A stretch of DNA of 64,000 nucleotides from Nitrospirota bacterium (GTDB lineage: Bacteria; Nitrospirota; Nitrospiria; Nitrospirales; Nitrospiraceae). The stretch spans positions 92,633 to 156,632 of the forward strand of contig JAUXVD010000021.1 in NCBI GenBank assembly GCA_030684575.1, in the 5' to 3' direction. Of the stretch, positions 2,932-58,987 are shown in pieces. Both the position numbers and the translations under genes were made by a program. Position 1 is the first letter of the stretch. Each line of letters begins with the position of its first letter. Below the pieces are notes generated by a model. The model saw only the letters and a program-made list of their open reading frames with translations. It searched no databases and had not been told where the DNA came from.

Positions 2932-3173
2932 CCCACTACCCGTCTGTCAGACTAGTTCTCAAACTCATGACTATCGGAAATGTTTTTCAGCAGGAAGGAA
3001 TTATGGATTCAGACTTTGTAACAACGAGGGATCGAATTGCCATTCCAACTCGGCTTCTTCGATCCCTACCCTGTCCATCCGTTTCCTGACTCGCTTCATA
3101 AGGAATCGCCGACTGGCCTTCACTGCGCGCATCGAACGAAATATATGCTCCCTCCAAGTTCGCTCGTTATCTC

Positions 3174-3274
3174 TCAGGGATGGGGACTGATTGATCTTCC
3201 ACTGCGCGCGTCCAACGAGGGGAGTCCGCGACCGCGCGTTGCGCGAGCACAGAAGATCATCAGTCTCCATCCCT
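3174..3274 (+). repeat. foldback element, type A copy (A1)
   Basis: Core CACTGCGCGCGTCCAACGAGG...CCGCGCGTTGCGCGAGCACAG. Locus-specific complementary arms: TCAGGGATGGGGACTGATTGATCTTC pairs with GAAGATCATCAGTCTCCATCCCT (one bulge, one G:T). Confidence 0.8.
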
Positions 3275-3317
3275 TCTTCTGCGCGAGCGATCCCTCACTA
3301 CTTCGTTTTCAAGGGCA

Positions 3318-3397
3318 GCCTGGTCGATCCTCGAGTGCGCGCGTCGAACGAGCACATTCCTATCGTGCGCGTTCCGCGAGCAGGAGGACGACCAGGC
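3318..3397 (+). repeat. foldback element, type B copy (B2); likely terminator-like hairpin 5 nt beyond the M20 peptidase stop
   Basis: Core GAGTGCGCGCGTCGAACGAGCACATTCCTATCGTGCGCGTTCCGCGAGCAG. Flanking arms GCCTGGTCGATCCTC / GAGGACGACCAGGC. Confidence 0.7.
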
Positions 3398-3401
3398 TAC
3401 C

Positions 3402-4772
3402 CTATCCCTTCCCCATCTTCGCCAGCTCCTCAAAGTAATGCGCGAAGGCCTTCATCCCGCTGGAGGCCTGGCCCCAGTCGAAATATTCGTTCGGCGCATG
3501 ATAGCCATGCTCCGGCAGGCTCAAGCCCATGAACAGAATCGGCACCTTCCAGGCCTTCTGCATCGTCACCACTGCGCCGATCGATCCGCCTTCGCGGATG
3601 AAAGCCGGTTCTTTTCCAAACCCGGCCTTCGCGGCCCGCTTCACACAATCGACATAGGGCCCGTCGAAGCTCCCCTTGAACGGGTGCAGCATGCCCTCCT
3701 TCTCCACCTTTACATTCGGATTGATCTTGGCCACATGGCGCTTGAGCAGGGCAAAGGCTTTCTCCGGAGTTTGGTTCGGCACCAGCCTCATGCTCACTTT
3801 CAATTCGCCATGGCCAGGCACGACCGTTTTTACGCCAGGCCCGTGATAACCGCCGGTCAAACCATGCACCTCGAACGTCGGCGCGGCCCAGATGCGGCGC
3901 ATGATCTCGGCTGGATCCTCCGTACGGAGCTTCTGAAACCCATAGGCCTGTTTGAAGCTCTTCACCTGGAAACCAGAGGCGAGGAAACTCTTGATCTCCG
4001 CCTTGGTCGGCTCAATCACATCGTTATAGAAACCGGGAATCTTTACCTTGCCGCTCTTGGCATCGACACAGGCATGGGCCACTTCCATCAGTTCCGCGAG
4101 CGGATTCCTCGCCGCGCCGCCGGTCACACCGGAATGGGCGTCTTTCGTGCCCGTCCGTAGCGTGAGTCTCGCGCCTAGCAGTCCACGCAAACCATAGGGC
4201 ATGGCGGGCTTTCCTTTGGCGAGCCAGATGGTGTCCGACACCACGACTGAGTCCGGCCGAGGAATCGCCGCGCGGTTCTTCATCCCGGCTGCGAAATGCG
4301 GACTACCGATTTCCTCTTCCAGCTCCCAGAGAAAGCGGATGTTGATCGGGACTCCCTGCTCGATCGCGTACCTGGCGCCGAACAAGGCTGCGAGTGCCGG
4401 GCCCTTGTCATCCGTCGCGCCACGGCCATGATAGAGGCCGTTTTCTATCTTGAACGCAAAAGGCGCCTGCTTCCATTCCGGCTCCTGCGCCGGTTGCACA
4501 TCCATGTGGTTATAGATGGTCACCGTCGGATGCTGGGCGCCGGTCATCCAGCCACCGGACAGGATCGGATATCCACCGGTCTCCACAATCTGAGCCTCCG
4601 CCCCCAGTCCCGTCAGCAACTGCCTCGAAAATTCCGCCATGCGCTTGATGTCGGGGGCCTTCGCCGGATCCATACTGATCGAAGGAATCTCCACCATCTG
4701 GCCAAGCAGATCTTCAAACCCTGGGCGGGTCTCCGTGATATAGGTTCCAAGTTGTCGGTCGTTTACACTCAT
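3402..4772 (-). CDS. M20 family metallopeptidase (dipeptidase/ArgE-DapE-like)
   Basis: 456 aa with YNHMDVQPA...WKQAPF...GRGATDDKGP motifs typical of the M20/M25/M40 family. Confidence 0.8.
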   Translation of the reverse strand: MSVNDRQLGTYITETRPGFEDLLGQMVEIPSISMDPAKAPDIKRMAEFSRQLLTGLGAEAQIVETGGYPILSGGWMTGAQHPTVTIYNHMDVQPAQEPEWKQAPFAFKIENGLYHGRGATDDKGPALAALFGARYAIEQGVPINIRFLWELEEEIGSPHFAAGMKNRAAIPRPDSVVVSDTIWLAKGKPAMPYGLRGLLGARLTLRTGTKDAHSGVTGGAARNPLAELMEVAHACVDAKSGKVKIPGFYNDVIEPTKAEIKSFLASGFQVKSFKQAYGFQKLRTEDPAEIMRRIWAAPTFEVHGLTGGYHGPGVKTVVPGHGELKVSMRLVPNQTPEKAFALLKRHVAKINPNVKVEKEGMLHPFKGSFDGPYVDCVKRAAKAGFGKEPAFIREGGSIGAVVTMQKAWKVPILFMGLSLPEHGYHAPNEYFDWGQASSGMKAFAHYFEELAKMGKG

Positions 4773-20816: not shown

Positions 20817-20941
20817 GCAGGCTGCTCAAACCGGCCGTCAGCAAGGCCGCAGCCGATGGAAGCACCGGAGGCGTAGCCCCTGGCTACGTTGAGGATGCTT
20901 TCGAGGTGAGAACGAAGCTGGCGACCGGTTTCAGCAGCCTG
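20817..20941 (+). repeat. ~120-nt TIR element, family C, copy 1
   Basis: GCAGGCTGCTCAAACCGG...GCCGCAGCCGATGGAAGCACCGGAGGCGTAGCCCCTGGCTACGTTGAGGATGCTTTCGAGG...CCGGTTTCAGCAGCCTG. Ends one base before the M50 protease stop codon. Confidence 0.85.
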
Positions 20942-21916: not shown

Positions 21917-22001
21917 AGTATCTTCTTCAATCGGATTACCGCAAAGCTAACGCGGCACGGCAGACATTCACTGACCACACGCCTAGTACAAGGGAAACCC
22001 T

Positions 22002-22214
22002 GCCAGGATGCTCAAAAGGCCGTCCAGCAAGGCCGCAGCGAGCAACTACCGATAGTTTTTCCAAGCTTGCTTGTTGATTTTTTTTGGAAATAGCCAGGAG
22101 GAGTCCCCCACTGCGCGCGTCCAACGAGGGTCTTCTGAGACCGCGCGTTGCGCGAGCACAGGGGACTCCTCCTGGCTATTCCTTCGTTTGCTGGCGGACT
22201 GTTTCAGCATCCTG
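22002..22214 (+). repeat. composite repeat: family C copy whose centre is replaced by an insertion carrying a type A foldback element
   Basis: C left end 22002-22039 and C right end 22185-22214 flank ~145 nt that include A2 (22089-22180). Ends immediately before the MBL gene stop codon. Confidence 0.75.
22089..22180 (+). repeat. foldback element, type A copy (A2), perfect 20-bp arms
   Basis: AATAGCCAGGAGGAGTCCCC | CACTGCGCGCGTCCAACGAGGGTCTTCTGAGACCGCGCGTTGCGCGAGCACA | GGGGACTCCTCCTGGCTATT. Confidence 0.85.
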
Positions 22215-23057
22215 TTAATGATCCAAGGCGAAGGGATTATGATCAAGCTCTTCACGAACCGTCGTGGCCGGTCCATGCCCAGGCAGCAATCGATATTCAG
22301 GCGGTAACCCGAGGACCTTGGTCCTGACCGACCCCAGATGGGTCTGGTACAGCGCACTGGGATTCGAGCGGCCGATGGATCCCGCAAACAGAGTATCGCC
22401 GACGAAACACATACGTTGAGACTCGGCATCCACTCGATAACAAATCCCGCCAGGGGTATGGCCAGGCGTCGCCAGACATTGCACGCGCAACCGTCCAACA
22501 GCAATCGTCTGGCCATCCTCCGGCGCTTTGAGCTGATCGGCAGGAGGTCGCCAACTGAGGAGTTCGACATCCTCAGATCCGAGATACACCGGCGCCTCAC
22601 GATACTTCAAAATCTGATCGATCCCATCCGCATGGTCTGCATGACCATGCGTCAGACAGATCCCGACCAGACGCAGATGGTGCTTTGATAAGACATCGAT
22701 CATTGCCGACGCATTGTAGGCGGAATCGATCAACAGCGCCTCTCCGCCGTCATACACCACATATCCCTGCACACCATAGCCATTGATCGAACCCCGTACG
22801 GTTTCCACCCACGAGATCGGAGACGCACCAGACGGCTCCCATTGGTCAATCGCAATCTGCTCCAACGGCCCGGAACGAAGTCCCAACGCCTTCGCCAACG
22901 CCCGCACCTCGGCGCGATCACGCGGAGGATCGCCTCGCTCCAACGCAGTGATGTCTCCGCCGGGCAATCCCGTCGTCCGGGAGATCTCGGCGACCGACAG
23001 CCCCTGCCCCATCCGCGCCTTCTTAATAATGTCTGAAAATTCGTCTTCCAGCGGCAT
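22215..23057 (-). CDS. MBL-fold metallo-hydrolase with N-terminal XRE-type HTH
   Basis: THGHADHADG (HxHxDH). Glyoxalase-II-like length. The N-terminal 70 aa (GLSVAEISRTTGLPGGDITALERG) look like an HTH. Confidence 0.75.
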   Translation of the reverse strand: MPLEDEFSDIIKKARMGQGLSVAEISRTTGLPGGDITALERGDPPRDRAEVRALAKALGLRSGPLEQIAIDQWEPSGASPISWVETVRGSINGYGVQGYVVYDGGEALLIDSAYNASAMIDVLSKHHLRLVGICLTHGHADHADGIDQILKYREAPVYLGSEDVELLSWRPPADQLKAPEDGQTIAVGRLRVQCLATPGHTPGGICYRVDAESQRMCFVGDTLFAGSIGRSNPSALYQTHLGSVRTKVLGLPPEYRLLPGHGPATTVREELDHNPFALDH

Positions 23058-23135
23058 ACGATAAATCCTTAGCTATCAGCAGTCCGGCCCCTCTTCTTAT
23101 TCTCTTATCCACATTCCGAAGGCGTTATTCCCAAA

Positions 23136-23387
23136 GGCGGGTGGCCCGTTGATCTCCCACTGCGCGCGTCCAACGAGGACCTTTCCTCTACCGATGGGCC
23201 CTCCACGCTTGCTCGCCCATTTTCTATTTCTAAAGGGGGTGGCCAGACTGTCCTTCACTGCGCGCATCGAGCGAGCACATTCTGATCGTGCGCGCTCTGC
23301 GAGCAAGAAGGATGGCCTGGTTGCCCCCTTCGCTTCCTTCTGAGGCCGCGCGTTGCGCGAGCACAGGAGATCGGCGGGCCACTCGCC
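23136..23387 (+). repeat. foldback element type A (A3) with a nested type B copy
   Basis: 22-bp arms 23136-23157 / 23366-23387 (3 G:T). The core halves are separated by ~180 nt containing B3. Confidence 0.8.
23235..23328 (+). repeat. foldback element type B (B3), nested inside A3
   Basis: Arms GGGGGTGGCCAGACTGTCCTT / AAGGATGGCCTGGTTGCCCCC (5 G:T, 1 A:C). Core CACTGCGCGCATCGAGCGAGCACATTCTGATCGTGCGCGCTCTGCGAGCAAG. Confidence 0.8.
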
Positions 23388-31837: not shown

Positions 31838-31954
31838 GCAGGATGCTCAAACAGGCTATCCAGCAAGGCCACAGCCGATGGAAGCACCGGAGGCGTAGCC
31901 CCTGGCTACGTTGAGGATGCTTTCGAGGCGAGAACGCTGCTGGCAGCCTGTTTC
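31838..31954 (+). repeat. family C element, copy 2
   Basis: GCAGGATGCTCAAACAGGCT...AGCCTGTTTCAGCATCCTGC with the shared centre GCCGATGGAAGCACCGGAGGCGTAGCCCCTGGCTACGTTGAGGATGCTTTCGAGG. Lies in a divergent intergenic region. Confidence 0.85.
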
Positions 31955-32048
31955 AGCATCCTGCTCGCTGGTTCGTTGATCCTCCAAGAACGTGCATGCT
32001 AGGGTTCGTCCTCTATTGTGCCGTGCCTCGTGATATGAACGTGACACT

Positions 32049-40037: not shown

Positions 40038-40163
40038 GCAGGCTGTTGACAAAGGCCGCCAGCGGCGTTCTCGCGGCGCGCAGAGGCTCAACGTACTGCG
40101 GAGAGTACGCTTCGCCTCTCCGTTTGCTGCGGCCTTGCTGGACGGCCTTTCTGAACAGCCTGC
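40038..40163 (-). repeat. family C element, copy 6 (opposite orientation)
   Basis: GCAGGCTGTTGACAAAGGCCGCCAGCGGCGTTCTCG...GTACTGCGGAGAGTAC...CGGCCTTTCTGAACAGCCTGC. Preceded by TAG although no credible gene ends there. Confidence 0.8.
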
Positions 40164-43982: not shown

Positions 43983-44220
43983 GCAGGATGCTGAAACAAT
44001 TCGCCAGCATCGTTCTCGCATCGTTCAGACCCTCAACGGGGACCCGGCCGCCTCACTAACTCGGCGGCGCGCACAGACGTGGTGCTCCTTATTCGTCGCA
44101 CCGTGCGCCCCAGCGGGTACGCCTCGGCCCTTCACTCGCTACGGCCTTGCCTGTGGCGCGGCGCGTCTTGGCGCGCCGGGGTTGGGCGGGTGAGAAGTCT
44201 GAACTGTTTGAGCAACCTGC
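43983..44220 (-). repeat. family C element, expanded copy 5
   Basis: Starts GCAGGATGCTGAAACAATTCGCCAGC immediately after the SprT stop TAA. Ends GAACTGTTTGAGCAACCTGC. About 110 nt of extra internal sequence. Confidence 0.7.
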
Positions 44221-47617: not shown

Positions 47618-47742
47618 CAGGATGCTGAAACAATTCGCCAGCGTCGTTCTCGGCTCATCGAAATTCTCAACGTACCCTCATGGGTACGCCTCCGGTTTCG
47701 ACTCACCTCCGGCCTTGCTGACAAACTGTTTGAGCATCCCGC
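47617..47742 (-). repeat. family C element, copy 4
   Basis: Starts at the G of the stop TAG of the preceding gene. The central hairpin is GTACCCtcatGGGTAC instead of GTAGCCaggGGCTAC. Confidence 0.85.
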
Positions 47743-58851: not shown

Positions 58852-58987
58852 GCAGGACCGAAAGGCTGTTCAAAAAGACCGTCCAGCAATGCCGCAGCCG
58901 ATGGAAGCACCGGAGGCGTAGCCCCTGGCTACGTTGAGGATGCTTTCGAGGCAAGAACGAAGTTGGCGGGATTTTTCAACAGCCTGC
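58852..58987 (+). repeat. family C element, copy 3
   Basis: Shared centre GCCGCAGCCGATGGAAGCACCGGAGGCGTAGCCCCTGGCTACGTTGAGGATGCTTTCGAGG. The right end ...CAACAGCCTGC overlaps the dtd stop codon by 1 nt. Confidence 0.8.

Follow-up and report, generated by a model that had tools for sequence, protein, structure and literature searches.

Nested foldback repeats with a conserved asymmetric core in operon spacers of Nitrospira and its relatives

The DNA analysed here (the window) is a 64,000-nt stretch of contig JAUXVD010000021.1 of a Nitrospirota bacterium, and coordinates are positions in it. A minus-strand gene of the window (22215-23057) encodes a protein with a metallo-β-lactamase (MBL) fold and a helix-turn-helix (HTH), and the spacer between it and an M50 peptidase gene carries a foldback repeat at 22089-22180 (+), referred to as the archetype. 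The left arm (22089-22108) and the right arm (22161-22180) form a perfect 20-bp pair, as an earlier sequence-only reading of this DNA had stated, and the predicted stem reaches 22086-22183. The core between the arms (22109-22160) comprises a left half (22112-22128), a 14-nt stem-loop (22129-22142) and a right half (22143-22158). A leader, X (TTTTTCCAAGCTTGCTTGTTGATTTTTTTTGGA, 22056-22088, +), lies directly 5′ of the left arm. The archetype is recognised by sequence, by fold (-69 kcal/mol, z = -9.2) and by a covariance model (93.7 bits).

The left half, TGCGCGCRTCSARCGAG, has six matches in the window (3124, 3203, 3336, 22112, 23161 and 23259) and the right half, GCGCGYTSYGCGAGCA, has five, all on the plus strand; shuffling predicts 0.31 and 0.83 matches respectively. 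The covariance model, a check that the sequence-only reading had proposed with the six copies, was built from 131 copies and was run over the whole window with filters off. Exactly four intact copies were found, at 3173-3279, 3306-3411, 22082-22188 and 23229-23335, and the rest of the 64 kb held nothing above noise. The copies score 85-99 bits on the plus strand versus 16-27 bits on the minus strand; the hairpin is an asymmetric palindrome. Each folds into one long hairpin of -59 to -69 kcal/mol (z = -6.4 to -9.2; -6.4 to -6.9 for the copies other than the archetype). With two disrupted copies the window holds six, all in plus orientation, with a near-identical asymmetric 50-nt core and self-complementary arms. 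The earlier count of six cores in one orientation therefore stands for the left halves, but those at 3121 and 23158 do not belong to simple copies.

The copy at 3121 is truncated (3100-3140, +) and consists of a left arm resembling that of family Fam6 (3100-3120), CAC and a left half (3124-3140), with no matching right arm. It is followed by an X leader (AATATATGCTCCCTCCAAGTTCGCTCGTTATCTCTCA, 3141-3176, +) and an intact copy (3177-3273, +; 98.8 bits) with Fam1 arms GGGATGGGGACTGATTGATCTTC / GAAGATCATCAGTCTCCATCCC and a loop of type C. A degenerate right-half remnant, TTCTGCGCGAGCGA, is seen by eye at 3277-3290 (+) and probably belongs to the truncated outer copy. The next intact copy (3310-3404, +; 85.2 bits) has Fam4 arms and a type B loop. 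The stop codon of an M20 peptidase gene (3402-4772, minus) lies at 3402-3404, inside the right-arm foot of this copy, so that the repeat abuts or supplies the end of that open reading frame (ORF). The copy at 23158 is an outer hairpin split by an insert that holds the copy at 23256. The 5′ part of the outer copy (23135-23183, +) contains the left arm (23135-23157), CAC, the left half (23161-23177) and the start of the apical stem-loop as far as CCTT (23180-23183). A nested insert of 152 nt follows (23184-23335, +), made up of an X-like leader (23184-23234), an intact hairpin with Fam6 arms (23235-23328; core 23256-23308, 94.8 bits) and the tail TTCGCTT (23329-23335). The 3′ part of the outer copy (23336-23387, +) resumes with a second CCTT (23336-23339), CTGAGGCC, the right half (23348-23363), CAG and the right arm (23367-23387).

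Related repeats were sought in 185,579 species-representative genomes with both halves as the pattern, six positions left free and the gap variable. Matches came from at least 120 genomic stretches, and all named records belong to Nitrospira, Nitrospiraceae, Nitrospirales or Nitrospirota, including Ca. N. defluvii. The resulting set contains 140-142 copies from at least 120 loci, for which L-numbers serve as labels. Most copies (128 of 142) lie outside predicted ORFs; their neighbours are housekeeping genes, and they occupy the spacers of housekeeping operons. Of 137 copies, 45 have a leader motif of the CCAAGCTTGCT type roughly 50 nt before the core. In about 25 loci an orphan left half, X and a full hairpin follow one another, with the orphan about 80 nt upstream of the full copy. 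A scan of IMG/VR gave one match (L202:12263-12309, IMGVR_UViG_3300028841_000072); its contig, classified as viral, may stem from a Nitrospira prophage or may be a piece of chromosome that was classified wrongly. No account of these repeats was found in the full-text literature on Nitrospira combined with repetitive extragenic palindrome (REP), miniature inverted-repeat transposable element (MITE), REPIN/RAYT, IS200 or RNA motif. On balance, the family appears to be a previously undescribed, lineage-specific (Nitrospira/Nitrospiraceae) group of interspersed DNA repeats, each an imperfect-palindrome foldback of about 100 nt.

The two core halves are imperfect inverted repeats. From the outside inward the hairpin has a variable outer stem, an internal loop with CAC opposite CAG, the helix UGC:GCA, a G.A mismatch, CGCG:CGCG, a UC bulge, CAACG:CGUUG, an A.G mismatch and a short apical stem-loop. 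The core is thus predicted to be a conserved irregular structure, in which an A.A/C.C loop, 3 bp, a G.A mismatch, 4 bp, a TC bulge, 5 bp, an A.G mismatch and a short stem enclose a 14-nt interval. This interval is not of variable length: it measures 14 nt in 134 of 142 copies and is of three recurrent loop types, GGCCTTCTGAGGCC, GCACATTCTGATCGTGC and GGGGAGTCCGCGACC. The search pattern did not constrain three of the pairs. At 42:74, 90 copies have GC and 39 have AU; at 45:73, 68 have CG and 59 have GC; and at 47:71 the counts are 115 AU, 8 CG, 7 GC and 1 UA. Covariation is essentially perfect at these core positions, and it is also strong across the 7 proximal base pairs of the arms.

The empty state of the archetype site was seen in relatives. 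With the MBL-HTH gene as query, 80 syntenic metagenome loci with the conserved order M16 peptidase, MBL, M50 peptidase were collected, in about 60 of which the MBL-M50 spacer could be measured. This spacer is 301 nt in the window and 9-24 nt in about 45 relatives, among them the closest, L121 (97% amino acid identity), L122 and L124, where it reads TGAGAAAGATGTC followed by ATG; most relatives have 10-13 nt. A BLAST comparison of the window with L121 gives 294 nt versus 6 nt. None of the relatives with a measurable spacer has a hairpin core at this place. The empty sites hold no arm sequence, just a 13-nt spacer, and plain hairpins made of the arms alone, which had been envisaged for such sites, were not seen at orthologous positions. 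The archetype lies within a composite insert of about 290 nt. A W module, together with a remnant of the original 13-nt spacer (AGTATCTTCTTCA, 21917-21929), occupies 21917-22003 (+), and a Y-type foldback MITE, with ends CAGGATGCTCAAAAGGCCGTCCAGC and GCTGGCGGACTGTTTCAGCATCCTG and with the X leader and the hairpin as its interior, occupies 22004-22214 (+) and abuts the stop codon of the MBL gene (TTA at 22215-22217 on the plus strand). The composite of Y, X and hairpin recurs in 18 loci, 17 of them unrelated to the window site, in one relative orientation throughout. Among the relatives, the MBL-M50 spacer holds a Y-type MITE without the hairpin core in twelve (in either orientation), W alone in one and an unrelated MITE in one.

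The nested copy was resolved in the same way. In L122, L123, L124 and L151 the M16-MBL spacer has one uninterrupted hairpin orthologous to the outer copy of the window; this older copy is uninterrupted in a 95%-identical relative. In the window the outer loop, GGCCTTCTGAGGCC, is split by the 152-nt insert with CCTT on both sides, and the BLAST alignment breaks at this point with a 152-nt gap in the window and -4 in L123, the 4-nt CCTT overlap. L028 has a nested case with a CTTC overlap. In L144 versus L148, the apex of an unrelated GC-rich palindrome has 124 nt (leader and hairpin) in place of 13 nt, and L007 versus L097 and L142 versus L176 are polymorphic with overlaps of 8 nt and 7 nt. Junction overlaps thus vary in length: 4 nt in the window and L028, 7 nt, 8 nt, or 13 nt replaced. 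After many Fam2 copies comes ...CCAT|CCTT, the remainder of an outer loop. The inserted units start with a leader of 20-50 nt and end with a tail of 7-10 nt, and these are not inverted copies of each other. Copies have been gained at sites that are empty in close relatives, and the multiplying unit is the whole hairpin, arms and core, usually with a pyrimidine-rich 5′ leader of 20-50 nt. New copies are preferentially located at the apex of a resident hairpin. The residents are other family members (loop CCTTCTGA), foldback MITEs of the Y type and GC-rich palindromes, and such apex-directed insertion results in nested and clustered arrays. The hairpin family is, or was, mobile DNA.

The arms fall into recurrent families: Fam1, GGGATGGGGGCTGATTGATCTTC / GAAGATCATCAGGCTCCATCCC, with 27 copies from 26 loci including 3177-3273 of the window; Fam2, GGGGAGTGGCCGAGGCTGCCCTT / AAGGGCACCTGGCCGCTCCC; Fam3, AAGGGGTGGCTGGGATGATCCC / GGGATCGTCCCAGCCACCCC; Fam4, CAAGGGTAGCCTGGTCGATCCTC / GAGGACGACCAGGCTACCCTT, including 3310-3404; Fam5, GGATGGCCCGGATGAGTCCCC / GGGGACTCACCGGGCCATCC, of which the archetype is a relative; and Fam6, the family of the copy at 23235-23328. 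When the left arms of 140 copies were clustered at 80% identity, 59 clusters were obtained; the four largest (27, 24, 13 and 10 copies) account for 53% of the copies, and 50 are singletons. The loci are not orthologous, since their predicted proteins form 651 clusters with hardly any shared between loci. Identical arms are present on different contigs of one metagenome-assembled genome (MAG) in L014/L021, L004/L019, L018/L032 and L017/L076, and twice within a single locus in L102 and L034. The arms, described earlier as locus-specific and complementary, are so within the window, but family-wide the subfamilies recur at unrelated loci; arms conserved across genomes, which that reading had held to speak against its idea, are to a large extent what was found. 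A loose consensus, GGG..GGCC.GG..TGATCC..AC, is common to all arm families and indicates that they are diverged homologues kept complementary. Within Fam1 and Fam2, conserved bulges and mismatches have been inherited. Four positions separate the archetype from Fam5, and compensation at all of them accounts for its perfect 20-bp stem. L109, L098, L039, L057 and L020 are chimeric, with left and right arms from different families, and the loop types combine freely with the arm families; this points to the shared core as the route of recombination. Reassortment among copies has thus involved arms, core-helix variants and apical loops.

At the M16-MBL spacer, the orthologous hairpins of L122 and of L123/L124 differ in their arms by paired, stem-keeping changes (GGCCCGTTGA/TCAGCGGGCC versus GTCCGGCTGA/TCAGCCGAAC), and L158 has a type B core with unrelated arms at the same place. 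These differences point to compensation in situ or to replacement. In L140, L149, L157, L137 and L200 this spacer instead has a short conserved gene, about 100 codons long and on the opposite strand (protein start MVTYL(M/I)LL..W.DQG...), which is absent from the window.

A second foldback family, also abundant, is that of the Y-type MITE, whose ends are CAGGATGCTCAAAAAGGCCGTCCAGC and GCTGGCGGACTTTTTCAGCATCCTG. Besides 22004-22214, the window contains copies in plus orientation at 20818-20941 and 31839-31963, copies in minus orientation at 43984-44219 and 47618-47741, and copies with diverged ends at 40039-40162 and 58862-58986. In 67 of 93 copies from all loci the right flank is YTAG or YTAA (CTAG in 35, TTAG in 17), and the left flank is CNCG without TA; the target-like motif is one-sided, with no evident target site duplication (TSD) in the 93 copies. 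In the window the orientation of the copies follows that of the neighbouring genes, and YTAG is often the stop codon of the upstream gene. The W module, about 85 nt, accompanies the Y-type MITE at the MBL-M50 spacer of L123, L126, L131, L153, L178 and L180, in both orientations relative to the genes; in L131 it stands alone and ends in CAGGAGCATCCTG, as if just the base of the Y hairpin were left. Y-type MITE plus W was considered as one unit with terminal inverted repeats (TIRs) and a TTAG duplication, and was rejected: W accompanies only 10 of the 93 Y copies, and as all 10 are at one orthologous spacer, this does not generalise. The unrelated MITE of L171 (1820-1941; TIR GTAACGACTCAGGT..., direct duplication GAAGAAG) indicates that the 13-nt operon spacer has been struck independently by different elements. 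A further module, Z (CTCACCCGCCCAACCCTGGCGCGCCAAGACGCGCC..., a small hairpin), is nested in the arm of a Y-type MITE and lies beside hairpin-core copies; it was noted in L019, L059, L150 and L172, in reverse complement in L125 and L129, and also in L018, L030, L035 and L093.

Other readings of the copies were also rejected. They are not intrinsic terminators, as no T-run lies 3′ of the stem; a TTTT no more than 16 nt from the stem is present in 21 of the 140 copies in plus orientation, mostly from the Y end, and in 3 of 140 in reverse. The reverse strand of Fam1 offers a Shine-Dalgarno sequence, an ATG and an open frame of about 33 codons, but by eye the core lies in another frame in Fam2, and coding was dismissed. 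Mechanical ORF finding yields ORFs of 90-130 amino acids through the repeats, in the window at 3037-3438 and 3191-3532 (+) and 3001-3270 (-), and also in L001, L097, L098 and L102. Those through Fam1 copies cluster across loci as a seeming protein family, and such ORFs probably give rise to spurious hypothetical proteins in the annotation of Nitrospira genomes.

The orientation of the copies is biased in two respects. Between tandem genes the element is antisense to both neighbours in 50 cases and sense in 13, so that its reverse complement is usually the mRNA strand; a further 20 copies lie between convergent and 16 between divergent genes. In 74 of 100 loci the element is on the C-rich strand (p = 3e-8), and the plus strand of the window has a negative GC skew throughout, whatever the gene direction. 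The G-rich strand holds 66% of the coding bases in the sampled loci. Where gene direction is uninformative (convergent or divergent neighbours) the skew effect is 21:8 (p = 0.024), and the effects of skew and of gene direction are each detectable against the coding baseline (p = 0.004-0.045). As both effects are present, orientation cannot separate a role in DNA from one in RNA; strand-specific insertion together with a transcriptional filter would fit the data.

Taken together, the repeats are probably non-autonomous foldback elements of a REPIN- or MITE-like kind. The core would be the functional module, read as a single-stranded hairpin or a cruciform by a mobilising protein acting in trans. 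The arms would need only to pair, and subfamilies could then drift with compensation. Gene conversion between the conserved halves of about 20 nt probably also homogenises the core and reshuffles the modules. Since the junction overlaps have no fixed length, breakage and repair at the apex, or template switching, would be as likely a route as a classical transposase. Several observations weigh against this interpretation. No transposase or other protein family recurs beside the copies when the ORFs of 120 loci are clustered; what recurs is limited to paralogous regulators, kinases and Sel1 proteins and to spurious ORFs across repeats. A phmmer search with E. coli RayT against six-frame ORFs of about 1.3 Mb from many genomes, the window included, gave no homologue (none below E = 2), a weak test with one query; the trans-acting partner is thus purely inferred. 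The asymmetric termini, a leader versus a short tail, and the variable overlaps fit neither a DDE-type MITE nor IS200/IS605 cleanly. Presence and absence could reflect precise deletion, which the majority-empty state counters at the archetype site only. Most core positions were fixed by the search pattern, and their invariance is therefore partly imposed. The antisense bias at tandem genes is also independent of skew, at 35:5 and 7:2 within the two skew classes; a role or a filter at the transcript level is thus possible, and the replication-strand result is confounded by it.

A structured RNA, acting in cis in operon mRNAs or as a small RNA, was weighed as an alternative. Such an RNA would bind a protein through its conserved internal loops and bulge, or its hairpin would lend stability to upstream mRNA in the manner of REP hairpins, and its variable stems would covary under selection. 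The covariation is real, as the sequence-only reading had surmised for a closing helix, being perfect for the core helices and strong for the proximal arm pairs, and the folds are very stable. The antisense excess of 50 to 13 persists after control for GC skew, and the M16-MBL copy has been kept in the same orientation in many relatives at 72-95% amino acid identity. Yet Rfam 15 gave no match at the gathering threshold and, at E <= 10, only generic noise resembling hairpins of miRNA precursors. An attempt to choose the RNA strand by G:U asymmetry was uninformative, G:U pairs being equally common on both strands (272 versus 308; mean ΔΔG -1.9 kcal/mol). Copies also lie between convergent (20) and divergent (16) genes, and no T-run follows the stem (21 of 140 in one orientation, 3 in the other). 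That copies are nested, truncated or chimeric, and have been gained where 97%-identical relatives have an empty site, is how repeat DNA behaves. These results favour an element at the DNA level, and we consider the RNA explanation unlikely; an effect on transcripts would be a by-product compatible with a foldback repeat. The proposal that the core of about 50 nt alone moves into the loops of pre-existing locus-specific hairpins such as terminators, or that its insertion creates an inverted target duplication, is very improbable. The arms of the four intact window copies do differ, and hairpin apices do receive insertions, in the apical loops of three kinds of resident hairpin, so that the proposed target is borne out. 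The proposed unit is not: the inserted segments include arms and leader, identical arms are present at dozens of unrelated loci, arm-only hairpins were not found at orthologous positions, and terminator T-runs are missing from the copies. The inverted target duplication is refuted by arm sequences that turn up again at unrelated loci and are missing from the empty orthologous sites.

A further alternative is a REPIN or an IS200/IS605-type single-strand element, whose core hairpin would be bound by an HUH Y1 transposase (RAYT/TnpA) encoded once elsewhere, acting on the lagging-strand template and inserting beside a short motif exposed in hairpin loops. Y1 enzymes (IS608/RAYT) read irregular hairpins (PMC6006769), and a core of two imperfect inverted 20-mers (approximately) with a conserved bulge and mismatches is of the kind they read. 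The replication-strand bias (74:26, and 21:8 where gene direction is uninformative) agrees with such an element, as do the single-stranded apical loops with CCTT or CTTC as targets, the YTAR at the left foot of 45 of 140 copies (32%) versus 10 of 140 on the mirrored side, and the co-resident Y-type MITE with its one-sided YTAG flank in 67 of 93 and no TSD. On the other hand, each element has one hairpin, not subterminal left and right hairpins; the overlaps of 4-8 nt resemble duplications or microhomology, which IS200/IS605 does not make; a conserved GTAG-type 5′ tetranucleotide is lacking; and no RayT-like ORF was found in the six-frame translations of the sampled loci and the window, a weak search given one query and small windows from many genomes. 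This explanation is, in our judgement, quite unlikely. A new mobilisation system recognising hairpin apices is comparably doubtful. It would be either a dedicated non-RAYT-like enzyme reading the asymmetric core, or apex cleavage with templated repair, copying whole foldback modules into the tips of palindromes; if true, it would make a self-nesting, self-homogenising repeat ecosystem in Nitrospira.

Among known systems, the repeats behave like REP/REPIN/BIME sequences and foldback MITEs. Like REPs and REPINs, including the BIMEs of E. coli and the RIMEs of rhizobia, they are short, lineage-specific, high-copy extragenic imperfect palindromes, in which two inverted conserved 20-mers (approximately) around a short spacer form a hairpin, and they form mosaic clusters in operon spacers and at the 3′ ends of housekeeping genes. 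Unlike these, they add an outer stem of 20-26 bp that differs between subfamilies and a 5′ leader, they nest in each other's apical loops, they have no GTAG-type 5′ motif and no RAYT gene flanked by them in the sampled 1.3 Mb or so; membership among REPINs hinges on a RAYT partner. With MITEs, including foldback MITEs and IS200/IS605-derived PATEs, of which the cyanobacterial Nezha is an example, they share a non-coding nature, a length of about 100-250 nt, arms conserved within subfamilies, presence/absence polymorphism between close relatives and the ability to ride inside another MITE. In contrast to MITEs, their termini are asymmetric (leader versus tail) and not TIRs, the arms being internal inverted repeats; the junction overlap does not appear to be a TSD of fixed length (4, 7 or 8 nt, or 13 nt replaced); and the most conserved part is central, not terminal. 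We know of no cognate autonomous insertion sequence. The tie of orientation to the replication strand (74 of 100 loci on the C-rich strand, confounded by the gene-direction bias) recalls IS200/IS605-derived PATEs, but the repeats differ from these in the single central hairpin, in the presence of junction overlaps and in having YTAR at the left foot in just 32% of copies.

The nesting recalls the small dispersed repeats of heterocystous cyanobacteria, which Elhai and co-workers are said to have described in 2008 (Genome Res) as units of 21-27 nt with compensatory changes, nested in one another and in mini-transposons. Small modules, a shared secondary structure with compensatory changes and repeated nesting are reportedly common to both, whereas the phylum and the sequences differ, and the Nitrospira units are about 100 nt with a long asymmetric conserved core. 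Integron attC sites are likewise sequence-variable imperfect palindromes dependent on strand and orientation, and are read as a folded single strand via conserved extrahelical bases and mismatches; the Nitrospira repeats, however, are dispersed in housekeeping spacers and not at cassette boundaries or in integrase-adjacent arrays, and have GTTGCGC in the core and no R''/R' boxes (RYYYAAC...GTTRRRY). The repeats thus fall outside the strict definitions of a TIR/TSD MITE, an IS200/IS605 derivative, an attC site, a terminator and any Rfam RNA. The family is a genuine and neat instance of bacterial 'junk' repeats and does not amount to a machine of a new kind.

In soils and wastewater the chief nitrite oxidisers and comammox organisms are Nitrospira, whose genomes are for the most part MAGs. 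With about one hairpin per 10 kb in the window and a second MITE family besides, such dense foldback repeats break assemblies, create spurious ORF calls and offer strain-level markers, and they widen operon spacers from 13 to 300 nt. They also provide a natural data set of palindromic repeats that keep a core relevant to protein binding or recombination while their stems drift with compensation, and one for asking why hairpin apices are preferred for landing and how repeat families exchange modules.

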